A stretch of 64,000 bases of DNA from an uncultured delta proteobacterium (GTDB lineage: Bacteria; Myxococcota; Myxococcia; Myxococcales; Myxococcaceae): assembly GCA_963731795.1 (NCBI GenBank), contig CAVSWU010000003.1, positions 1,094,216-1,158,215 of the forward strand. The letters run 5' to 3'. The translations under genes were made by a program, and so were the position numbers. The notes under the pieces were generated by a model. It did no database searches and was not told the DNA's origin. It saw only the letters and a list, made by a program, of their open reading frames with translations. Positions 3,001-20,927 of this stretch are shown in pieces (positions within the stretch are counted from its first letter, which is position 1; the number at the start of each line of letters is the position of its first letter).

Positions 3001-4669
3001 CCGCCTCATGGACAGCCAGGATGGAGGCCAGGAAGTCGACCCCGCGATCCAGCGCGACGACGACGAGCGCCTCCGGCTTCACGCCCTGCCCCGCCAGCTG
3101 CGTGGCCAGGTGATCGACCCGCTCGGAGAGCTGCCGGTACGTCAGGCGCGCGCGGCCGGAGCGCACGGCGATGGCCTCGGGGGTGCTCGCGGCCTGCCGC
3201 CGGAAGAGCTCAGGCAGGCACAGCTCGAGAGGAAAGTCCTGGCGGCGGTCATTCCACTCCACCAGCAACCGGCGCCGCTCCGACTCGGGCAGCAGCGGCA
3301 GCTCCTTCACCGAGCGCGACGGATCCGCCAGGGCCGCGTCGAGCAGCAGGGCGAAGCCCCTGGCCATGTGGGCGATGGTCTCGGGCTCGAACAGGGCCGT
3401 GTCGTACTTGAGCTCGCAGTGGAGCCGGCCGTGGATCTCGGTCATCTCCAGGGAGAGGTCCATCAACCCCTCCTGCTGGCTCACCGGGATGGGCTCGAAG
3501 ATGAGCCCTCCGAGCTCCACCTCCACCGGCCGATCGGTGTGGAGGAAGAACGCCGACAGCTCCTCGCGAGGTGTCCGCTGGAGCATGATCATGGACTGGA
3601 AGATGGGCGAGCGGCTCGCGTCGCGCGTGGGGACGAGCCGCTCCACCATCATGGGGAAAGGGCACTCCTGGTGGGCCCGTGCATGCGTGACGGTGCGCCC
3701 GGCTGCCGCGACGAACTCCCGGAAGCTGGGCTCCCCGGCGAGGCGCGAGCGCAGCGGGAGCATGTTGATGAAGGAGCCCGCGATGCGGTCCAGCCCCTCG
3801 AGGCCCCGCCGCCCAGGCACCGGAGTGCCGACGATGACATCCTCCTGGCCCGTATAGCGGTGGAGCAGCACCTGATACGCGGCCAGGAGCACCGTCAGGA
3901 AGGTGGAGCCCTCCGCCTTGGCGAGCGCGCGGATGCGCTCGACCGTCTCCGCCCCCAGCGTGAAGGGATGCGAGCCGCCCTGGTACGACTGCACCGCGGG
4001 CCGCGAGTGGTCCAACGGCAGGTTCAGGACAGGCAGCTCGCCCGACAGCGCCTCCTTCCAGTAGCTCCAGAGCCGCTCCCCTTCAGGGCCCGCGAGCAGC
4101 TCCTCCTGCCACCGCACGTAGTCCCCGTACGTGAGCCTCAGCGGCGGCAGCTCCGCTGGCCTCCCCTCTCGCACGGCGCGGTAGAGCGTGCCCAGCTCCT
4201 CGAGCAGGACGTTCATCGTCGCCAGGTCCACGGCGATGTGGTGCAGCGTCAGGACGAAGACATGCTCTCGCGCCGAGCGCGTGAAGAGCTCCAACCGCCA
4301 CACGGGCTCGCGCTCGAGATCGAAGGGACGCCTGCCGAGCTCCTTCGCCCGCGCCTCCAGCTCACGATCGCTCTCGGAGGGCACCCTCCACTGGCGGATG
4401 TGGAAGTCCATCCGCTCGTGGACGAGCTGCATGGGCACGCCCTCGTGCACGGCGGACGTGGAGCGCAGCACCGGGTGACGCTCCGCCAGCTGGAGGAACG
4501 CCTCCCTGAGCGCGAGGAAGTCCACCTCGGACCTGACGCGCGCCGCCACGACGACGTTGTAGGCCGAGCTCTGGGGGGAGAGCTGCTGAACGAACCAGAT
4601 GGCCCGCTGCCCCTGCGACAGGGCCTGACGGCTGACAGGACGGGAGGAGACAGGCAGCGCGAGAGGCAT
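1..4669 (-). CDS. Non-ribosomal peptide synthetase, N-terminal part (C - A - PCP - Cy-like domain; gene continues past window start)
   Basis: Minus-strand frame open from ATG at 4669 (RBS AAGGAG) to position 1. Hand-translated motifs: C-domain HHIAVDLAT; A3 LAFVVFTSGSTGVPKGA (~2700-2750); A7/A8 YRTGDLARHLPSGDIEFLGRADHQVKVRGIRIELGEIE (~2040-2160); [17 protein letters not shown] (~1560-1600); downstream Cy-like FALTELQQAYWLGQ and PLLMGDLQS (~900-1400). Confidence 0.9.
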   Translation of the reverse strand, partial: MPLALPVSSRPVSRQALSQGQRAIWFVQQLSPQSSAYNVVVAARVRSEVDFLALREAFLQLAERHPVLRSTSAVHEGVPMQLVHERMDFHIRQWRVPSESDRELEARAKELGRRPFDLEREPVWRLELFTRSAREHVFVLTLHHIAVDLATMNVLLEELGTLYRAVREGRPAELPPLRLTYGDYVRWQEELLAGPEGERLWSYWKEALSGELPVLNLPLDHSRPAVQSYQGGSHPFTLGAETVERIRALAKAEGSTFLTVLLAAYQVLLHRYTGQEDVIVGTPVPGRRGLEGLDRIAGSFINMLPLRSRLAGEPSFREFVAAAGRTVTHARAHQECPFPMMVERLVPTRDASRSPIFQSMIMLQRTPREELSAFFLHTDRPVEVELGGLIFEPIPVSQQEGLMDLSLEMTEIHGRLHCELKYDTALFEPETIAHMARGFALLLDAALADPSRSVKELPLLPESERRRLLVEWNDRRQDFPLELCLPELFRRQAASTPEAIAVRSGRARLTYRQLSERVDHLATQLAGQGVKPEALVVVALDRGVDFLASILAVHEAGGACVLIEPSHPVQRVAQILEQAGAVGVLVSQARRAALAQALALVPAQGRPALWGVEELLAIRARTGVQRARVAPGNLAFVVFTSGSTGVPKGAMIEHRGMLNHLYAKATDLGITARDVVAQTAPPSFVICIWQTLAPLLMGAEVDVVEDAVARDSRRLLDRVAEDGISVLQIVPSVMRLMLDDAEARGQARPALPSLRWLVPTGEALPPDLCRRWLALYPAIPLLNAYGSSECSDDVAHYAITTPPREDLAHLPIGRPVANARLYVLDSRMEPVPVGVVGELYVGGVGVGRGYLNDAQRTASAFVSDRFSGDDAGRLYRTGDLARHLPSGDIEFLGRADHQVKVRGIRIELGEIESVLRGHEALRDAVVTAAPDASGSVHLVGYIVPRPGPAISEEAVREYLRQRLPEYMVPSTWVVLEVLPLNANGKADRRALPKPGAQAERPALVAAPRNDTETALVALWSELLGVKRVGIHDNFFELGGHSLLAVKLIIRLRERFGTELPLSRMFELSTIARQAEFLAREQPHARGAAGSGSTRVQLIPEPERSLEPFALTELQQAYWLGQTGLFERSSATAVGYIEAETLDLDVARFNAAFQRVIERHATLRSIVRADGQQQVLAKVPAFELEVVDLRGLPEAEVERRIEEARAAVSRANPRPDTWPLFTLRGHRLDQRRYRLHLAFPLLMGDLQSFRVINRDLERFYRDPGADLGALEVTYRDYVRYLEAAREADEGYQKALAYWRDRLPTLPPAPLLPQVSAPVALRERGFQRWAAEVDAEAWQRLKARGTRAGLTPTAVLAAAYAEVLAAWSQTPHFTLNLLYQNRPPLHPRLGEVVGNFSTTLLLEVDCRPRDTFAQRARRVQARLWSDLEHTQVSGTQVLRELALSQGTGAASAMPFVFASTLYEDAQANDESQLLGHPVHTRLETPHVWIDHQASEARGGLRFHWDVLVAIFPAGLVDAMFQAYRELLQRLAEGEGWEALEMVRLPASELTARQTANAT

Positions 4670-7177: not shown

Positions 7178-8092
7178 TCAGCCGCGAGCCAGGGCCACGG
7201 CCAGCTCACCGGCGAACCGGGCGTTGTTCGTGAGCAGCGCCAGGTTGGCCTTGAGGCTCTTGCCGCCCGTGCGCTTCGCCATGTCCGAGAGCAGGAACGG
7301 GGTGACGGCCTTGCCACGGATGCCCTGGCGCTCGGCCTCGGCCAGCGCGGAGGCGATGTGCAGCTCCACCTCCGCCCGAGGCAGGGCCACTTCCTCGGGC
7401 GGGGGCAGCGTGAACACGAGGCCCCCCTGCCCCAGCTCGCCCCGGGCGCGGACGATGCGAGCGGCCGTCGCGGCGTCATCCACACGGTGCTCCAGCGGAA
7501 GGCCCGAGCTGCGGCTGTAGAAGGACGGCAGCTCGTTGGTGCCGATGCCGATGACGGGCACACCCGCCGTCTCCAGTGCCTCCAGGGTCTTGGGCAGATC
7601 CAGGACGGACTTGGCCCCCGCGCACACCACTGCCACCGGGTACCGAGCGAGCGCGCCAATATCCTGGGAGATGTCCCAGTGCTCGCTGACGCCCCGGTGC
7701 ACGCCGCCCAGTCCGCCGGTGGCGAAGACACGGATGCCCGCGGCGGCGGCCAGCTCGCAGGTGGCGCTCACGGTGGTGCCGCCCGAGGCCTTCAACGCCA
7801 TGGCCACGGCCAGATCCCGCGAGCCGAGCTTCATCAGCCGCTCCTTGCCCTCGGCGAGCCGGCGCATGGAGGCCTCTTCGAGTCCGATCCACACCTCACC
7901 ATCCACCACTGCGATGGGAGCGGGCACGGCGCCCGCACGGCGGACGGCCTCCTCGCAGGCCCTGGCGGCGCTGAGGTTGTCCGGGTACGGCAGCCCCTGG
8001 GCCACCACGCTCGTCTCGAGCGCCACCAGCGGCGCCTTCGTGTCCAGCGCGCGCCGCACCTCATCGGAGTAACGGAAGCTCATCCGAGGCAT
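7178..8092 (-). CDS. psuG: Pseudouridine-5'-phosphate glycosidase
   Basis: Full-length similarity to PsuG/IndA family (PLVALETSVVAQGLPYP..., VFATGGLGGVHRG..., VVCAGAKSVLD...). No psuK kinase adjacent. Confidence 0.9.
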   Translation of the reverse strand: MPRMSFRYSDEVRRALDTKAPLVALETSVVAQGLPYPDNLSAARACEEAVRRAGAVPAPIAVVDGEVWIGLEEASMRRLAEGKERLMKLGSRDLAVAMALKASGGTTVSATCELAAAAGIRVFATGGLGGVHRGVSEHWDISQDIGALARYPVAVVCAGAKSVLDLPKTLEALETAGVPVIGIGTNELPSFYSRSSGLPLEHRVDDAATAARIVRARGELGQGGLVFTLPPPEEVALPRAEVELHIASALAEAERQGIRGKAVTPFLLSDMAKRTGGKSLKANLALLTNNARFAGELAVALARG

Positions 8093-8124: not shown

Positions 8125-9099
8125 ATGGCGCGGGAAGCGTCTCCGATGTACAGGAGCCCCGCGCCTCTGGGCGCCTGCCCGCCCACCGTGAGCACCTCCT
8201 CCCCGTCCACCCCGCCCTCCCGCTCGGCCCCCACCTTCTCCCTGTCGGATTTGGCCATCCTCTGTGTGGTGGTCATCTGGGGGACGAACTACACGGTGGT
8301 GAAGGACGCGCTGGACTCGATCCCGGCACTGGCCTTCATGTCGCTGCGCTTCGGCGTGGCCGCGCTGGCCATGGGAGCGCTGCTGCTCTGGCTAGAAGGA
8401 TGGAAGCCCCTGCCCCGCGCCACGCTGCTGCGGCTCACGGCGCTGGGTCTCATGGGCAACACGCTGTACCAGATCCTCTTCATCCTCGGGATCGCCCGCA
8501 CCACGGCGGCCAACAGCGGGATGCTCACGGCGGTGACGCCCGTGCTGGTGACGATCCTCTCCGGAGCCTTCGGACTGGATCGGATCACGCGCCCCGTGGT
8601 GATCGGGCTGGTGCTCTCGGTGCCGGGAATGCTGCTGGTGGTGGGCGCACGCGGGCCAGCCTTGAGCGCGGAGACGCGGCTGGGAGATCTGCTCATCCTC
8701 GGCGGGTGTGTCTGCTGGGCCATCTACACGGTGGGCCTGCGCTCCCTGGGAAGCGAGCTGTCCGCCATGCGCGTGACGGGGCTGACGATGCTGACGGGAG
8801 CGCCGGGCGTCGTGCTCGCGGGGCTGCCGACGGTGCTGAAGCTGGAGCCCTCGCGCATCGGGCCGGGCGCATGGGCGGCGCTCGTGTACTCGGCGCTGAT
8901 CCCGCTGGTGCTCTCGTACATCATCTGGAACCGCAGCGTGCAGCAGGTGGGCAGCAGCCGCACGGCGCTCTACAACACGGGCATCCCGGTGGTGGCCGCG
9001 CTCACGTCCTGGGCCATCCGCGGCGAGCCTCCCACGCTCCTCCAGGTGCTGGGCGCGGCGCTCATCCTGGCCGGAGTGCTGATCAGCCGCAGGCGCTGA
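8125..9099 (+). CDS. EamA/DMT-family transporter
   Basis: 10-TM hydrophobic profile with two EamA-like halves; low-complexity N-terminus, so true start may be the internal Met at 8146. Confidence 0.8.
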
Positions 9100-9285
9100 A
9101 ACCGTATCCAGGGGTTCGGTGGATGAGAGTCAGGTACCACCAGCAGAGCCCGCAGCTTGATGTAAGCAGCTGAAGACTCTACTTCCGGGATGAACGGGCC
9201 TGAAGCCCCCCAAGCTGGAGTTTCCTCTTCAGAAACCCCACCGTGTTCGCCACGCTGAACTTCGGCAGGATGCTCACTTGAAGAG

Positions 9286-9335
9286 TGGAGGCGGCGGGAT
9301 TCGAACCCGCCGCTCGGAGCTTCTGGCGAGAACGC
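9286..9335 (-). other. tRNA 3'-end-like fragment (T-arm + acceptor 3' strand), probable att-site remnant
   Basis: Minus strand reads ...GCGGG-TTCGAAT-CCCGC-CGCCTCC-A (perfect 5-bp T-stem, canonical T-loop, 7-nt acceptor strand, discriminator A). No matching 5' acceptor strand GGAGGCG within 95 nt, so not a complete tRNA. Confidence 0.35.
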
Positions 9336-9516
9336 TCCGACTTGGTCGAGCGCAGTTCCCGTAGGACTTCCAGGCACGGCACTCCCAGGGCGGGCTTGGC
9401 GAAACTCTGTGGGTACCCATCGATAGCGTGTGCCCTGGCGAGGTGTGGCTGGGGAGGGGCTGGTGGGAACGCACGGGTGGGCGTACCGGCGAAGGCAGCC
9501 GGAGGGGACGGTGCTG

Positions 9517-10216
9517 TACGAGGCGGTGAGGGACAACCTGGCCACATTGCTGGCGGAGGCCAGCGAGGTAGGGCGCGGCCTGCCCCGGTACGTGGAGCGG
9601 GACTTCGCCAAGTACCTGGAATGCGGAGTGCTGGCGCACGGCTTCGCGCGGGTGAGCTACGAGAGTTGCAAGGACGAGCTGCTCGTCGCCTTCTCGTGCA
9701 AGGGCCGAGGGGTGTGCCCGTCCTGCAACGCGAAGCGGGCGCATGTGACGGCAGTGCATCTGGTGGAGCAGGTGCTACCGCATGTGCCCTACCGGCAGTG
9801 GACGCTGTCCTTTCCGCACCGGGTCCGGTGGGTGCTGCTCAAGGATGTGGGGCTACTCTCGGACGTCCTCTCCCTCTTCCTGCGCGCGGTGTTCGCCTTG
9901 CAGCGGCGGAGGGCACGGCGGCAGGGCCTACGTGGCGGCCAGGTCGGGGCCGTGTCGTTCATCCAGTTCTTCGGCTCCGCCTTGCAGGTGACTCCTCATT
10001 TCCACTCGCTGGTGCCGGACGGCGTCTTCGTGCCGTGGGAGGGCGGCGTGCGCTTCGAGGCGTTGCCGCCGCCCACGCAAGCAGAGGTGGAGAAGTTGCT
10101 GAAGGTGGTGCGGCACCGGGTGCTGCGGCTGTTGGAGAAAAGAGGAGCCCTGCCCGCGCAAGGACCCGAGGACGCGCTGCAGGCGTACCAGGCGCATTCC
10201 CTGCAACAGCGACTGC
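9517..10216 (+). mobile_element. IS91-family (HUH/Y2 rolling-circle) transposase gene, truncated relic (copy 1)
   Basis: ORF 9430..10605 contains the N-terminal Zn-binding region and HUH motif of IS91-type transposases ([52 protein letters not shown]...PYRQWTLSFPHRVR...SFIQFFGSALQVTPHFHSLVPDGVF). Homology ends near aa 262; catalytic Tyr region and C-terminus missing. Confidence 0.75.
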
Positions 10217-10788
10217 GCTGGACGGAGGTGGATCAAAGTCCTCCACTCAGCGCTATGGCGAATTGGAGCTCGCTCCCAGCCGCGACACAGTCTTCAACTG
10301 CGTCGACCTCGCCCTCCACGCTTACGACTTCAGATAGCGGAGAACTTTTCACTCATGAGTTACTTTTGTTAGGCGCTCTTACTCTTGTCCGCACGGGAGG
10401 CGGCACCCAGCTTCCAGGAATGAGGCTTCGCGCCAAGGAGGCAGCGGACGAGGGGCACATCCATTTGCTGCTCCCGCGCATCTCGTGGCGTTGGGTAGAG
10501 GTGGACGACGTGCGCGCCCAAGTGCTTGCAGCCGGAGAGGGGCCAGTTCACCCATGCCTTGCTCGCGTTCGCGGGCTCCGGCCGAAGGAGCGGAGAAGAG
10601 TGTGAGAGAGCAGAATCAGCAGACGCGTCGGAGTTGGGTGGTGTCGAATCGTGCCTGAAAGGAATAACTCATCTGGATCCACGTCGGCGTACCGGGTTCC
10701 TCCGGGCGCTGAGCCGCCCGGAGGCGTGAGAGCCCCTGAGCCAACGAACGTCAGGGGCGCTCGCACCAGAGCGGTGGTCTCATCCCGA

Positions 10789-12360
10789 CTACTGCTGCAC
10801 CTCGAGCGGCGTATACAGCTGTGGCGTCGGGAAAGTCTCCTGAGCGCAAGAGGTCCCTTCGTCAACGATCGAGTTGCAGTTGTTGTCCTTCCCGTCGCAT
10901 ACCTCGGCGGCTCCGGGATGCACACTGGGGTCCGTATCGTCGCAGTCGTTGGACGTGGCTCCGTAACCCGGGGGCGGAGTGCAGCCCCAGGGGGCGGGGC
11001 TGATGGCCCAAATGTCGCCGTACCCGTCCCCATCAAAATCCTGAGAGAAAGCGCGAGGCAGCGTGGCGTCCGCATCGTTGCAGTCGCTGGAGTCAGACAC
11101 GTAGCCAGCCGGCGCGGAGCAGGCTTGGATGCTCTCCGCGGCATTGCCGCGCCCGTCCCCATCCGCGTCACGGTAGTAAGTGGTATCTCCCCCCACCCCC
11201 TCGTCGATGGAGCCATTGCAGTTGTCATCCACTCCATTGCACGCCTCGGCAGCCCCGGGCTTCACGCTGGCGTTGGAATCGTTGCAGTCGCTGGAATTGG
11301 ACACGTAGCCCGCTGGCGCCGAGCACGCCTGGGTGCTCACCGCCGCATTGCCGTACCCGTCCCCATCCGCGTCACGGTAGTAGGTGTTCAGGGGCCCTCC
11401 CTCACCCGACGGTCCGTCACAGTCGTTGTCGTGGCCACCGCAGCTCCCGCCGATGTCGCGGTCACTCAGCGCGTTGATGTGGCCCTCCGCGTTGCCTGTC
11501 AGTGATCGGGCATAGATTCCGCCGTCCCAACTGCCATTGCTGAAGTGGATATGAGCCTGGGGGGCCAATAACGTACCCCAGAAGCCAAAGCCGTCGGCGT
11601 TGATGCTCGTCGCCTCCGGAAAGTTGTAGAGCACGCCGTGCTGGTCGATGCCGCCGCTAAACGAGTGGCCGAAGCCCGTGAAAGTGGCTGTGCTGCCGGA
11701 GATGTTCACTACGGCCAGAGAACCCGCTGGCGCGTCGATAGACAGCAGCTTGGCGCCGGTGAAGGAGTTGGCGTTCACCTGGAAGACGTTCACGTCTGGA
11801 GCTGTGCCGCGCAGCATGACACCGCCCCAGGGCTCAACGGTCGTCATGCCGTTGACCGCCAGACCGGCCAGCCGGGAGGACAGGCCGCGCAACTCAGCAA
11901 ACCGGGCTGCAAAGTCGATAGGTGTCCCGTGCGCCGCGGTGCCTCGAGGGAAGACCACGGATGGATCGGTGGTGTAATCGCCCCCGTACCAGGCATCTCC
12001 CCAGACGCCGCCGCGAGAGAGCGTCAAGTGGCCACCCGCCACCAACACCTGGGCCGTGTTGCTGTCCGGCACACCCGCCCCCACCGCAAAGTCAGTCAGG
12101 GTGATGTTGCCGCCCGCCGCCACCTTGCCTTGTACGTCATGTCCCTGGCTGTAGTCCTCGAGCAAGAACAGGTTGTGGCCACTCAGGCGGATCTGAATGC
12201 ACGCCAGGAGTGGCGGGGAGGTGGGGGAAGTCTCAATCAGCTTCCCGGCGGCAGCGCGATCACCCGCTTCGTCTTCGTGGACAAAACCGCAGGCCCCTAC
12301 AAGCGCCCCCAGAAGCAACCAAGACAGATGAACGCGGACGACTCTCCAAGCGCCTCTCAT
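10789..12360 (-). CDS. Secreted lipoprotein with choice-of-anchor-A-like N-domain and three MopE-type Cys-rich putative metal-binding repeats
   Basis: Start ATG at 12360 (RBS GGGGGA); signal plus lipobox LLGALVGAC. Repeats YYRDADGDGYGNAA.S.QACSAPAGYVS.SSDCND...PGAAE.C.G.D.NCN match the PF11617-like consensus (CDDxD..V.PGA.E.CDG.DNDC). Confidence 0.8.
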   Translation of the reverse strand: MRGAWRVVRVHLSWLLLGALVGACGFVHEDEAGDRAAAGKLIETSPTSPPLLACIQIRLSGHNLFLLEDYSQGHDVQGKVAAGGNITLTDFAVGAGVPDSNTAQVLVAGGHLTLSRGGVWGDAWYGGDYTTDPSVVFPRGTAAHGTPIDFAARFAELRGLSSRLAGLAVNGMTTVEPWGGVMLRGTAPDVNVFQVNANSFTGAKLLSIDAPAGSLAVVNISGSTATFTGFGHSFSGGIDQHGVLYNFPEATSINADGFGFWGTLLAPQAHIHFSNGSWDGGIYARSLTGNAEGHINALSDRDIGGSCGGHDNDCDGPSGEGGPLNTYYRDADGDGYGNAAVSTQACSAPAGYVSNSSDCNDSNASVKPGAAEACNGVDDNCNGSIDEGVGGDTTYYRDADGDGRGNAAESIQACSAPAGYVSDSSDCNDADATLPRAFSQDFDGDGYGDIWAISPAPWGCTPPPGYGATSNDCDDTDPSVHPGAAEVCDGKDNNCNSIVDEGTSCAQETFPTPQLYTPLEVQQ

Positions 12361-12447
12361 ATGGATCCCCCTGCTGTGGCAGTCTATTTCAGACCTATCA
12401 CGCTTGCCTTCTTCAGATCCATCTCGACTTCGAACTGATCCAGCGGC

Positions 12448-13072
12448 TTGTACCCAACGCGCCCAGCGGGCGTGAAGATGTACGTCGTTGTGAGGCGCCC
12501 ACAGCAGTACGAGGCGGTGAGGGACAACCTCGCTACGCTGCTGGCGGAGGCCGGAGTAGGGGGTGTTGGCGCACGGGTTCGCGCGGGTGCAGTGCGAGAG
12601 TTGCAAGGACGAGCTTCTGGTGGCCTTCTCGTCTGTGACGGCAGTGCACCGGGTGGAGCAGGTGCTGCCGCAGGTGCCCTACCGGCAGTGGACGCTGTCG
12701 TTTCCTCACCGGGTGCGGTGGGTGCTGCTGAAGGAGGCGGGAGTGCTCTCGCAGGTGCTCACCCTCTTCCTGCGCGCGGTGTTCGCCCTGCTCCCCCAAG
12801 CAGGTGCGGAGGAGGCGAGCGCGGGGAAGGAGGCAGCGGCCAGAACAGAGCGGATGAAGCAGGGGACGCCACGAGTGGACTGGGCCGAGTTGCTCAGCAG
12901 GACGTTCGACTTCGACGTGTTCGCCTGCGTGAGGTGTGGAGGCAGGCGCCGGGTGTTGGCGTACGTGAAGGGAGCACGAGGGGTGCGGGCGATTCTGAAG
13001 CACCTGGGCCTGCCCACGGCAGGTGCGAGGCTGGCCCCGGCGCGAGGGCCACCCCAGGCAGCGTGGTGTTGA
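12448..13072 (+). mobile_element. IS91-family transposase gene, internally deleted/frameshifted relic (copy 2)
   Basis: Frame 1 (12448..) has [16 protein letters not shown] (N-term). Frame 2 (12563..13072) has [22 protein letters not shown]...VPYRQWTLSFPHRVRWVLLKE... then the typical IS91 C-terminus VDWAELLSRTFDFDVFACVRCGGRRRVLAYV...ILKHLGLPT; central HUH/Tyr catalytic region is deleted. Same orientation as copy 1. Confidence 0.7.
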
Positions 13073-13316
13073 AGCTCAAGCCAACAAGGCCAAGAGAGCC
13101 AAGCGCCTGCCGCGCACCTGAAGGCAGGGCGGCCAGGGCCAGCGTGTACCCCAAGAGGCTGCGCGGCTTCTCCACCCGCTTGGCTCACTGCTCGGGCGGC
13201 CCCCGTCAGCGCTCCTCCTCGGCACCTCCGCTCCAGCCCTCACCTTCCACATGGCCTCTATCCCGCCTATACGCTTCCACCTGCAGAGCAGCGTCTTGCG
13301 CACGTCGTTTCCGTCT

Positions 13317-13360
13317 CCGGTTTGGTCCTTTTTTGGTCCCCAAAAACCGGATTTGGTCCC
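13317..13360. repeat. Low-GC hairpin / triple TTTGGTCC repeat
   Basis: CCGGTTTGGTCCTTTTTTGGTCCCCAAAAACCGG (stem CCGGTTT/AAACCGG) with TTTGGTCC occurring three times; sits between the IS91 relic 3' end and the convergent activator gene. Confidence 0.4.
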
Positions 13361-13423
13361 GAGACGCAGGCGTCGCCCCAGTTCTCAGAGGGCGGCGCCT
13401 TGAAAGCGGCGGGTTCCTCGGCT

Positions 13424-13453
13424 TGGGAGCGGCGGCATTCGAACCCACAGCCC
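13424..13453 (-). other. Degenerate tRNA-3'-end-like repeat (partner of 9286-9335)
   Basis: TGGGAGCGGCGGCATTCGAACCCACAGCC shares the core GCGGCGG.ATTCGAACCC.C.GC with the 9286 fragment, in the same orientation; T-stem no longer pairs. Confidence 0.25.
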
Positions 13454-15154
13454 TCAGCCCCGCCGTGAGCGCTCCACGCGGATGGCGTACTCCTCGATCT
13501 TCTTGTCCAGCGTGGGGCGGCTGATCCCCAGCCGCTGCGCCGCGCGGATCTTCCGCCCGCCCGCCGCCTGGAGCGCCTCGACGATGGCCTCCCGCTCCAG
13601 GCGCTCCACCATCTGCTGCAGGCTGCTCGGCTTCGAGGCCACGGAGCCCTCCTGGATCTCCGGGGGCAACCGCAGCGCGTGCACCTCGCCGCCCGCATAC
13701 ACGCGCCCGAGCCGCTCGCTCACCAGCCTCAGCTCGCGGATGTTCTGCGGCCACGCGTAGTCCTCCAGCAGGCGCCGCGCCCCCGGGCTGAGCACGGGCG
13801 GAGGCTTCCGGGCTTCACCCGCGCTCCGCTGAGCGAAGTGCTCGAACAGCGCGAGCACGTCCGCTCGGCGCTCGCGCAGCGGAGGCACTTCGATCTCCAC
13901 CCCGGCCAGCGCCATCGCCAGGGCCGTGTCCAGCCCCCCCTGAGTAGCCAGAAGCTGCGCGGGCGCGCTCGCCGTGGCGATGAGGCGCAGATCCACCGGC
14001 TCCTCGCCGCCCTGCCTCGCCGGAGCCACCTTGCGCGTGAGCAGCCGCGTCAGCCGCTCGACGACCGCGCCCGAGAGCCCCTCCACATGCTGGAGCAACA
14101 ACGTGCCCCCATCCGCGCGCAGGAGCGCGGAAGAGCGCGGCGGCAACCCGGGAGCGCTGGCTTCGCCGAAGAGCTGCTCCTCCACGGTTGGCTGCCGGCA
14201 ATCCACCGCCACCAGCGGCCCGAGCCCTCGCGGGGAATGCGCGTGGATGAGCCGGGCCAGCAGGCTCTTCCCAGTCCCCGGCTCGCCGGAGATGACGACG
14301 GGCTCGGCTCTGGCGGCCGCGCGTCGGGCCTGCTCCACCATCCGGCGGAACGGGCGGGACGTGCCCACCAGCTTCAACCGGGCCTGCTCCTCCTCCGCGC
14401 GGGAGCGCATGGCGGCATACGCCTCGCCGCCCATGCGCCCGAGTGCCGCCACCACCTGGATCTCCAACGTGGTGAAGCGCGGCTCGTTGCACCCCACGTA
14501 CAACAACCCGAAGGCCATGCCCCCCGAGGCCACCAGCGGAGCGCACAACTCGGAGCCCGAGGAGGCCACCTCCTTCAGCTCCAGCGCCATGCTCGCCATG
14601 GTGCGGGGGACCTCCACGGAGGATGCGCCGGACACCACCGCGGTGAGCAGCCCCTCCGGCCCGCCCAGCAGCGCCGCGGCCCGGTCCGCGTTGAGCGCAT
14701 GGAGGGCCTCCTCCACCAACCGCCGCAGCACCATGGCCTGGCTGGTAGCCCCCAGCAGCGCCACGCCCGCCGAGAACAGCGCCGCCTCGGGCCCCACGTG
14801 CGGCAGCACCTCCGCGATGGGCACGTGGCTGGCATCGAGCGGCTCCGTCTCCGCCAGGGCCGCATGGCTGAGCGGCTCGTAGATGGCGATGGTCTCCCCT
14901 ACCTGGACGCGATCGCCCGGCAGCAGGCGCGCCTCGCCCGCCACTCGCTCGCCATTGATGAGCGTCCCGTTGCGCGAGTCGAGATCGATGAGCCACGCCT
15001 GCCCCTCGCGCACGAAGAGGCGCGCGTGCCGCCGCGACGCCTTGTCGTCGTTGATCTGGATCTCGCACGAGGGGCTGCGGCCGATCGTGACCTCCGTGAC
15101 CACCTCGCAACGGCGGCCGGCGGAGGGACCGGTGAGCAGCAACAGGGCTGGCAT
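13454..15154 (-). CDS. FHA-GAF-AAA+ NtrC-family transcriptional activator (sigma-54 EBP-like, GAFTGA motif absent)
   Basis: N-terminal FHA (TIGRSPSCEIQINDDKASRRHARLF...GTLINGERV), central GAF-like region, AAA+ core (VVISGEPGTGKSLLARLIH, GGTLLL), C-terminal Fis-type HTH (RKIRAAQRLGISRPTLDKKI). The GAFTGA loop reads EASAPGLPPRS. Confidence 0.9.
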   Translation of the reverse strand: MPALLLLTGPSAGRRCEVVTEVTIGRSPSCEIQINDDKASRRHARLFVREGQAWLIDLDSRNGTLINGERVAGEARLLPGDRVQVGETIAIYEPLSHAALAETEPLDASHVPIAEVLPHVGPEAALFSAGVALLGATSQAMVLRRLVEEALHALNADRAAALLGGPEGLLTAVVSGASSVEVPRTMASMALELKEVASSGSELCAPLVASGGMAFGLLYVGCNEPRFTTLEIQVVAALGRMGGEAYAAMRSRAEEEQARLKLVGTSRPFRRMVEQARRAAARAEPVVISGEPGTGKSLLARLIHAHSPRGLGPLVAVDCRQPTVEEQLFGEASAPGLPPRSSALLRADGGTLLLQHVEGLSGAVVERLTRLLTRKVAPARQGGEEPVDLRLIATASAPAQLLATQGGLDTALAMALAGVEIEVPPLRERRADVLALFEHFAQRSAGEARKPPPVLSPGARRLLEDYAWPQNIRELRLVSERLGRVYAGGEVHALRLPPEIQEGSVASKPSSLQQMVERLEREAIVEALQAAGGRKIRAAQRLGISRPTLDKKIEEYAIRVERSRRG

Positions 15155-20753: not shown

Positions 20754-20927
20754 GTCCGCGACTCCGGAGCCTTCTGGGCTCCACCACTCCGGCCGTATCA
20801 GGTACCGGGTGGGAAGAGCGGGCCTGACACGAGGTCCGCCATTGCCAATGGGCCCTTTTGAGGGGCCCCCTCTGCCCGCGCCGCGTGAGGCCGTGTCACG
20901 GCGCGGGTGGAGGCACTACGGGAAGGC

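Follow-up and report, generated by a model that had tools for sequence, protein, structure and literature searches.

The window analysed here is a stretch of 64,000 nucleotides (nt) from an uncultured member of the Myxococcaceae (contig CAVSWU010000003.1, positions 1,094,216 to 1,158,215 of the forward strand). Its host DNA is myxobacterial and rich in guanine and cytosine (GC), and at positions 9100-13453 it contains a small islet with an intact lipoprotein gene, two truncated transposase genes of the IS91/ISCR type (IS, insertion sequence) and two short repeats that resemble the 3' end of a transfer-messenger RNA (tmRNA). An initial annotation had read this region as the scar of an integrated or IS91-mobilised element. 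From the comparisons described below, we are very confident that the islet is an insertion composed of the remains of three copies of a single IS91/ISCR-like family, that it harbors an intact lipoprotein gene of atypical composition, and that the tmRNA-like hairpin is a left-end module of this family.

A lineage-specific insertion between two convergent genes

The islet occupies the space between the stop codons of two convergent native genes. It starts directly past the stop codon of an EamA/DMT transporter gene (8125-9099, plus strand; Pfam EamA, 3e-46), and it is followed by an intact gene for a 566-amino-acid (aa) FHA-GAF-sigma-54 activator (13454-15154, minus strand; assigned with Pfam). 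The activator is 62-85% identical to its relatives across its full length, with the best matches, at 83-85% aa identity, in Hyalangium genomes. On the other side of the transporter gene lies a PsuG gene (7178-8092, minus strand), recognized from gene order and Pfam.

The metagenome contig L155 carries a transporter 89% identical to that of the window and is syntenic with it from PsuG through the activator and a 391-aa open reading frame (ORF) to the L17, RpoA, S4, S11 and S13 genes. In L155, just 10 nt (GCCCGCCTCT) separate the stop codons of the transporter and activator genes, and no tmRNA-like sequence is present in this empty site. Because blastn homology between the window and L155 ends exactly at 9099 and restarts at 13470, all 4,354 bp of 9100-13453 are to be regarded as foreign, with the junctions to native DNA at 9099/9100 on the left and at about 13449-13453 on the right. 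For the closest relative of the transporter (94% aa identity), gene positions place a convergent gene 36 nt past the stop codon. In Hyalangium (L003) and Archangium (L006), the activator gene directly adjoins PsuG, and L006 retains an 84-nt remnant of the transporter gene.

The initial annotation had pointed to two kinds of relatives that would bear on its reading, those without the insert and those with the lipoprotein gene but without the IS relics. The first kind is represented by L155 with its 10-nt spacer; the second was not encountered among the loci L001-L006, none of which has either the IS relics or the lipoprotein gene at this position. As judged by these alignments, 9100-13453 is a lineage-specific foreign insertion of 4,354 bp in a spacer of 10-36 bp between convergent genes of housekeeping type. 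The proposed scar is thus a real insertion with an empty site in relatives, but it begins at 9100 and not at 9286, as had been assumed.

The surroundings of the activator gene vary among the relatives as well. Past its stop codon, the DNA is unlike in every relative examined (L001, L002, L004 and L005; from about 11700 onward, in L005 from 6217). L004 has a 2.8-kb insert ahead of PsuG, and L001, L002 and L005 have unrelated genes there. On these sequence comparisons, the 3'-3' junction beside the activator is a recurrent rearrangement hotspot.

Two transposase relics flank the lipoprotein gene

Pfam, tblastn and DNA homology agree with the initial annotation that two relics of the IS91 family flank the lipoprotein gene on the same strand. 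Copy 1 (9286-10232, plus strand) comprises a left end, the 5' untranslated region (UTR) and codons 1 to about 257 with the zinc finger and the HUH motif. Its ORF (9430-10605) matches Zn_Tnp_IS91 at 1e-14 (54.7 bits, cut-off 26.3 bits) and Y2_Tnp at positions 1-68 of 183 only. The HUH motif, PHFHSLV, is present, and the earlier description of this copy as the zinc-finger/HUH half is correct. DNA homology to other copies spans 9285-10232 and breaks off after ...RWTEVD. As this IS homology stops at 10232, the following segment (10233-10788, GC 0.62) was classed as filler without homology; it includes a low-GC stretch and supplies the downstream end of the chimeric ORF 9430-10605. The low-GC junction segments reported earlier were confirmed.

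For comparison, a full-length transposase of 462 aa was reconstructed from P0002 and P0014. Copy 1 matches its residues 1-261 at 93% in tblastn. Copy 2 (12504-13274, plus strand), delimited through the repeat families D1, D3 and D5 and tblastn, is truncated at its 5' end, keeps the C-terminus and the right end, and covers residues 19-39, 53-163 and 369-462; its DNA homology to the loci L146 and L147 reaches 13263-13274. The Zn_Tnp_IS91 match of its ORF (12563-13072) is below the cut-off (0.008). Copies 1 and 2 have three DNA blocks in common, which are 84-90% identical. Since the spacing between these blocks shifts from 2991 to 2935 and then to 2890 nt, copy 2 must have lost 56 and 45 nt, the latter within the part that covers residues 53-163, in addition to a large internal deletion (residues ~164-368). 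It had originally been placed at 12448-13072; the loss of its catalytic center and the retention of its C-terminus were rightly described, whereas the homology span had to be corrected.

Both copies have lost the region around the catalytic tyrosine, which reads CRYGARG in P0014 and P0019, and the islet is therefore immobile on its own. From their sequences, both copies are classified as relics of the IS91/ISCR family, not as functional members.

A widespread and decayed family

The protein of copy 1 has 1021 homologues, nearly all from Myxococcaceae and Archangiaceae (Archangium, Vitiosangium, Corallococcus, Myxococcus, Stigmatella and Hyalangium) and nearly all truncated, with 130-407 aa versus the ~462 aa of the reconstructed transposase. 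The latter is 37.6-37.8% identical to ISVsa3/ISCR2-type transposases over 97% of its length. By these matches, the family is widespread and mostly decayed in the two families of bacteria. Copy 1 has 92.5% nt identity to a copy in Archangium violaceum and 86-87% to those of L147 and L149, whereas the native activator gene is only ~71% identical to its Archangium counterpart; this difference points to horizontal spread. We found no literature that links the ends of IS91-family elements with tmRNA or describes this family in myxobacteria.

The state of the family is also visible in gene calls that fuse IS91-like relics to fragments of host genes, namely P0077 (with the C-terminus of XerC/D), P0044, P0093 and P0098; across these four, the fusion partners are the XerC/D C-terminus, an NYN/YihY-like region, YceI and a class-IV aminotransferase. 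Judged from their sequences, such fusions reflect wide decay of the family and yield chimeric annotated 'proteins', to which P0001 of the window (364 aa) also belongs. The Phage_integrase match of P0077 was considered as a possible element-borne integrase and was rejected, as it comes from the C-terminus of a chromosomal XerC/D protein to which a relic is fused. Copies may also be nested or rearranged: L148 has tandem relics at 3351-3946, with a right end ~165 nt ahead of the next copy and an inverted fragment, L153 has an inverted left-end fragment downstream of its copy (4302-4411), and in L146 the copy is split by an IS21-type element (rve plus AAA).

An intact lipoprotein gene

Between the two relics lies an intact coding sequence for a protein of 523 aa (10789-12360, minus strand), which has a signal peptide, a choice-of-anchor-A domain (Pfam pAdhesive_15, 7e-53) and C-terminal MopE repeats (Cu-binding_MopE, 2e-25). 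A lipobox, LVGAC, can be read from the translation at residues 19-23. The gene contains tandem repeat modules of 204 nt (family D2), and the GC content at its third codon positions is 0.77, compared with 0.90-0.92 in the neighbouring genes. The initial annotation had described the cargo as a metal-binding lipoprotein; the lipoprotein part stands with the lipobox, but 'metal-binding' is merely the Pfam name of the MopE repeat.

The pAdhesive_15 domain is 55-67% identical to choice-of-anchor A proteins of Stigmatella and Hyalangium, and the MopE repeats are 66-71% identical to RCC1/MopE proteins of Hyalangium and Archangium. Both domains are thus those of known myxobacterial surface proteins, whereas their combination in the window has no full-length match: besides the window's own record, no full-length orthologue was found, and the best matches cover 38-55% of the query. 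By its domains, the protein is of an ordinary myxobacterial choice-of-anchor-A/MopE type. Its gene is lineage-specific and probably arrived with the IS debris.

Two bracketing repeats resemble the 3' end of tmRNA

The relics are bracketed by two repeats of the same orientation, which are 77% identical over 35 nt (9286-9320 and 13424-13458; family D9). The left one is a tmRNA-3'-end-like core (9286-9313, minus strand, ending in ...CCTCCA) that forms the left-end hairpin of copy 1. On the minus strand, 9286-9310 reads GCGGGTTCGAATCCCGCCGCCTCCA and represents the T-arm, the 3' strand of the acceptor stem and a discriminator A, with a U at position 70, as in tmRNA and tRNA-Ala. This core folds into an 8-bp stem with a 7-nt loop (z-score -2.4).

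It could be argued that the repeats resemble each other by chance, given that strings of the GCGGCGG type are common in DNA with 68-70% GC and that the right copy lacks a T-arm fold. However, the right 25-mer at 13424 has just 4 mismatches to the left one (21/25) and is the sole other site with at most 6 mismatches in the 64 kb; 100 Markov-1 simulations of 64 kb yielded no site with at most 4 mismatches and a mean of 0.02 sites with at most 5. Furthermore, the flank of the right repeat matches the loci L151 and L153 over 42-119 nt. A chance origin was ruled out on the basis of the simulations and the flank matches, and we regard it as hardly credible. The two repeats are homologous, as first annotated, with a chance expectation below 0.01.

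The left repeat had been read as the T-arm and acceptor end of a tRNA. In a scan of metagenome and viral contigs for the exact 25-mer, which gave 135 loci with 136 occurrences in the fetched loci, it stood at the 3' end of tmRNA genes called by ARAGORN in 91 cases and was linked to tRNA-type calls in 3; the other 42 occurrences were outside any called gene, 12 of them cut by the end of the locus. Because of this ratio (91/136 versus 3/136), we assign the repeat to the tmRNA type instead. The Rfam tmRNA model gives 17 bits for the left core (E = 6e-4), compared with a gathering score of 47 bits. Of the parts of a tmRNA, the core has the T-arm and the acceptor 3' strand only, with a possible 5' acceptor strand ~90 nt away, and blastn of 9100-9460 against the 135 loci with the 25-mer found no tmRNA homology past 29-36 nt. 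As for a parent gene, which the initial annotation had proposed to look for among tRNAs, the window contains neither a tRNA nor a tmRNA gene according to ARAGORN and to Rfam at its gathering threshold.

Two observations concern the possible origin of the core. Going inward from the core, the motif GGGAGTG appears after ~90-100 nt (9372-9378 in the window, 3870-3876 in L149), and Rfam pairs it with the acceptor 3' strand; in L149, this paired match reaches 18.9 bits (E = 8e-4). The pairing is a hint that the left end may be more than a 3' fragment, namely a tmRNA pseudogene with an internal deletion. In L146 (Archangium violaceum, CP069338), a 64-nt 'mini-tmRNA' at 1934-1997 consists of a 5' acceptor-like GGGCGCG, a T-arm and a 3' acceptor strand, with the 328-nt interior shrunk to 24 nt (33.7 bits for the Rfam tmRNA model, E = 2e-10). 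A terminator-like hairpin comes after it, and a right-end-like IS sequence (1822-1866) lies ~70 nt away; the fragment could be an ssrA attachment (att) site remnant or a miniature IS derivative.

The ends of the element

Nine other loci with copies of the family were fetched, and eight copies were informative for the left end. The hairpin is found upstream of the alignment start in six of these eight, with the core at 9286 in the window, 2080 in L147, 3776 in L149, 2843 in L151, 2797 in L152 and, as a variant, 2547 in L153; the distance from the core to the alignment start is about 10-245 nt. In several copies, mutual similarity stops exactly at the outer edge of the hairpin, while some have 20-90 nt beyond it in common; beyond the hairpin, the sequences of L147, L149, L152 and the window are unrelated to one another. 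The hairpins of L151 and L152 are perfect palindromes of 13-15 bp (z-score -4.3). GTTC, CTCG and CTTG motifs occur immediately to the left of the core in three cases, namely the right-hand module of the window (see below), L151 and L153. As it is found upstream of copies at unrelated loci, the hairpin belongs to the left (ter-side) end of the element, and by this distribution it is the family's own left-end module, which travels with the element. The proposal that the repeats are a target-site duplication left by an integrase is therefore not upheld: there is no local tRNA or tmRNA gene, the hairpin travels with the IS family, and the empty site has no core.

At the opposite end of copy 2, a conserved right (ori-side) terminus was recognized by alignment of right ends (13257-13274, plus strand, ...TCTATCCCGCCTATACGC). 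The right ends align up to ...CCTATACGC, which is position 13274 in the window, and diverge at once thereafter in the window, L146 and L149; L152 and L148 have variants. On this sequence basis, the segment 9286-13274 may have one ter-type and one ori-type end, with movement in trans as a possibility.

The right repeat sits 150 nt beyond this terminus, and it is part of a larger unit (13336-13448, plus strand) that abuts the activator stop codon and is composed of an 88-nt 'arm' (13336-13423) and a degenerate core (13424-13448). The unit is 75% identical to L151 over 119 nt (2756-2871) and 93% identical to L153 over 42 nt (2528-2569), and in both of these loci the arm-plus-core module directly precedes an IS copy. 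Owing to these matches, we interpret the right repeat as the left-end module of a third IS copy, the body of which is missing. A 526-aa ORF beside the arm in L151 was considered as a common cargo gene and rejected, because nothing in the window resembles it.

In the low-GC spacer between the right end of copy 2 and the third left-end module, three direct TTGGTCC repeats can be read around an inverted repeat, CCGGTTT...AAACCGG (13322-13359, plus strand); the homologous arm of L151 has a single related copy, GGGTCCC. The TTGGTCC repeats could be protein-binding sites of the arm type.

The left edge of the islet (9100-9285, 186 nt, GC 0.57) is DNA without a recognized match. Neither the arm sequences nor any of the fetched loci are significantly similar to it. 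We rejected that it is native DNA, since it is missing in L155, and that it is a decayed arm, since its alignment scores fall inside the shuffled null. At the right edge, roughly the final five activator codons read ...VERSRRG* in the window (13454-13470), as in L001-L003, versus ...VKRGERSS* in L155 (10920-10938). The 3' end of the activator gene, with the stop codon at 13454-13456, is similar in sequence to the degenerate hairpin's inner arm, a likeness that could reflect microhomology at the junction.

How the islet may have been assembled

Rolling-circle transposition offers one way to connect these features. In IS91, terIS lies upstream of tnpA, with a single palindrome in subterminal position that adjoins the tetranucleotide at which cleavage occurs (CTCG or GTTC), while oriIS lies beside a CTTG or GTTC target and no target duplication is formed (PMC13181058). 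Termination fails in 1-14% of events, and such one-ended transposition takes adjacent DNA along (PMC13181058). By analogy, the hairpin would correspond in position to terIS and the conserved ...CCTATACGC end to oriIS, an equivalence we infer from their placement; with the two so assigned, 9286-13274 would have the ter...ori structure of an IS91-type composite. A one-ended rolling-circle event could have started at the ori end of copy 2, run past its missing ter end and halted at the hairpin of copy 1. The resulting composite would have brought the lipoprotein gene in, with the transposase supplied in trans, and the arm that some copies have to the left of their core would have been taken along through read-through at ter. 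As a whole, an insertion of debris from three copies, which have their own left-end module and were delivered as a ter...ori composite, is the explanation that we favor with moderate confidence; the rolling-circle delivery step taken by itself is tentative.

Several points weigh against it. The native junctions (9099/9100 and ~13449-13453) differ from the ter-type end at 9286 and the ori-type end at 13274, and a single clean insertion of the IS91 type is therefore insufficient; the islet requires either a minimum of two events or acquisition as a block. A search for IS91 ends, as the initial annotation had suggested, recovered the left hairpin at 9286 and the conserved right end at 13274, but no CTTG or GTTC target beside the latter: such a target is absent in the window, L146 and L152, only L149 has CAAG, and the tetranucleotides at the right ends (TTCC, AGGA, CAAG and AGGC) have no consensus. 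The last 66 nt of the right-end region contain no notable hairpin, and compensatory changes that would support selection on the left hairpin were not seen among the few copies available. The body of copy 3 breaks off inside the inner arm of the hairpin, not where ter cleavage would fall. Finally, no intact family member was recovered among the homologues, its activity being inferred only, and a composite with the lipoprotein gene was not found elsewhere.

Integrases classically target the 3' end of tmRNA genes, and the core equals that end exactly, up to the 3' terminus of the gene. The islet might accordingly be a unit mobilised by an integrase: a tyrosine integrase that targets ssrA and is encoded elsewhere would use the cores as att sites. 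Core, IS91-like gene, cargo, arm and second core would circularise together and integrate at the cores, with the IS91-like gene as a passenger or marker. There is a precedent in ISCR2, the closest characterized relative: 112-130 bp upstream of rcr2, it has an att site that stems from the 3' end of guaA and overlaps the putative terIS (Zhang et al., PMC9376610), and the integrase of GIsul2 carries out both excision and integration of the CR2-sul2 unit (PMC9376610). The layout of the islet is comparable, with the core ~150 nt upstream of the tnpA start (~9463) and the second core (13424-13448) past the cargo. In L151 and L153, arm, core, left end and tnpA are contiguous, as in an attP, whereas the window splits them to the two ends of the islet, which is the permutation expected from a circle integrating through the core. 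The palindrome of L151 and L152 has a 12-7-12 geometry, like the core site of a tyrosine recombinase, and the three TTGGTCC repeats in the arm might be arm-type binding sites.

Against this stands, first, the lack of an integrase. The initial annotation had suggested looking for one nearby; tblastn with Xer-type probes found nothing tyrosine-recombinase-like in the window (best E = 0.06; a weak test, with one approximate probe), the ORF space of the islet is wholly accounted for with no integrase gene among it, and no integrase lies beside any fetched copy. Second, the copies in L147, L149 and L152 have one core and the distinct ...CCTATACGC end opposite, the left native junction at 9100 is 186 nt outside the core, and the empty site has no tmRNA-like pseudo-att. 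Third, the degenerate positions of the second core are common to L153, which implies that they were inherited and do not stem from a hybrid with a local site. Nor is there a phage match for arm and core: no phage matches to the ends were found, the plasmid matches were limited to distant coding sequences, and a scan of viral contigs with a 20-mer from the 5' UTR gave 0 matches. Taking both sides together, we consider integrase-mediated mobilisation rather unlikely, although the relation to ISCR2 makes it a serious competitor.

The mismatch between junctions and element ends suggests yet another scenario, in which the ends had no role and the lipoprotein gene is a bystander. Either a preassembled junkyard fragment was acquired as a block, through illegitimate or homology-facilitated recombination after DNA uptake, or the islet accreted in situ by serial insertions and deletions. 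This would fit with the 186 nt at 9100-9285 and the 556 nt at 10233-10788, which have no recognized origin, with the hotspot character of the site, where the DNA downstream of the activator differs in L001, L002, L004 and L005, and with relics elsewhere that are fused to host genes (P0044, P0093 and P0098) or nested (the tandem in L148 and the IS21 insertion in L146). Moreover, copies 1 and 2 differ by 10-16%, and hence do not represent a recent duplication. Yet the succession of a left-end hairpin, a right end in the correct orientation and another left-end module is more regular than random debris would be, and an intact lipoprotein gene amid degraded surroundings is unaccounted for, except through selection. 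We therefore regard block acquisition or accretion as quite improbable.

Relation to known mobile elements

The closest parallels are with ISCR2/ISVsa3 and the CR2-sul2 unit. Like ISCR2, the family has an HUH transposase with an N-terminal zinc-binding domain (37.6-37.8% aa identity over 97%) and a single tyrosine motif region (CRYGARG in relatives of the window copies). In both cases, the left boundary is the 3' end of a housekeeping gene that is targeted by integrases, guaA for CR2 and tmRNA here, and this 3' end lies ~110-150 bp upstream of the transposase gene (PMC9376610). As in CR2-sul2, the cargo is located between the element and a second copy of the housekeeping 3'-end sequence. By contrast, the core here is tmRNA-like and not guaA-derived, and neither an integrase nor a parent island was found. 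The islet further differs from CR2-sul2 in its host from the Myxococcota, its decayed copies and its cargo, which is a lipoprotein gene instead of a resistance gene, and most myxobacterial copies have one core and a distinct conserved right end.

With IS91, IS801 and IS1294, the family shares the combination of Zn_Tnp_IS91 and a Y2_Tnp with HUH motif, two unlike ends, a subterminal palindrome upstream of tnpA and the lack of an obvious target duplication; the variable extra DNA past the ter side is also what one-ended transposition would give (PMC13181058). Unlike those elements, it has no visible CTTG or GTTC target by the ori-type end and one tyrosine instead of two, its ter-side palindrome is a copy of the tmRNA T-arm and acceptor of 8-15 bp, and it is known here from decayed sequences. 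Genomic islands and prophages in ssrA or tRNA genes, lastly, likewise have direct repeats of a gene 3' end around atypical foreign DNA and empty sites in relatives. However, the islet has no ssrA or tRNA gene at its site and no integrase, its repeats match at 21/25 positions and are not identical, they belong to a dispersed IS family, and the left one is 186 nt inside the islet. With a target gene and an integrase both missing, and an empty site devoid of att, we conclude from the sequence that the islet is not a tRNA- or tmRNA-integrated island.

For the host genome, the islet is a routine find, a dead IS junkyard in a permissive spacer together with a lineage-specific gene for a surface lipoprotein. 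The wider point is that a near-perfect copy of the tmRNA 3' end recurs across genera as the left boundary of an ISCR-like family. How ISCR elements move is debated, with rolling-circle transposition on one side and integrase shuttling through att sites that overlap 'terIS' on the other (PMC9376610). For this debate, a natural test case would be offered by another, unrelated lineage in which a housekeeping gene's 3' end occupies the terIS position. It is conceivable, if doubtful, that the left boundary of the ISCR/IS91-like family of the Myxococcota is a T-arm/acceptor minihelix captured from tmRNA, which serves either as a surrogate terIS for the HUH transposase or as an att core for ssrA-specific integrases. 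If the latter were true, the element and adjacent cargo would hitch-hike on ssrA-specific integrases, and this would be an independent example of ISCR 'ends' acting as integrase att sites. A caution for annotation also follows: tRNA- or tmRNA-like fragments that flank an islet need not be att scars formed at that site.

Other features of the window

The sole Rfam match at gathering score in the window is an L17 ribosomal-protein leader (20784-20840, minus strand, 40.3 bits), consistent with the rpoA-rplQ and ribosomal protein cluster of the syntenic L155. The lower GC content at ~20-42 kb (63-67%) is due to the ribosomal protein cluster located there.

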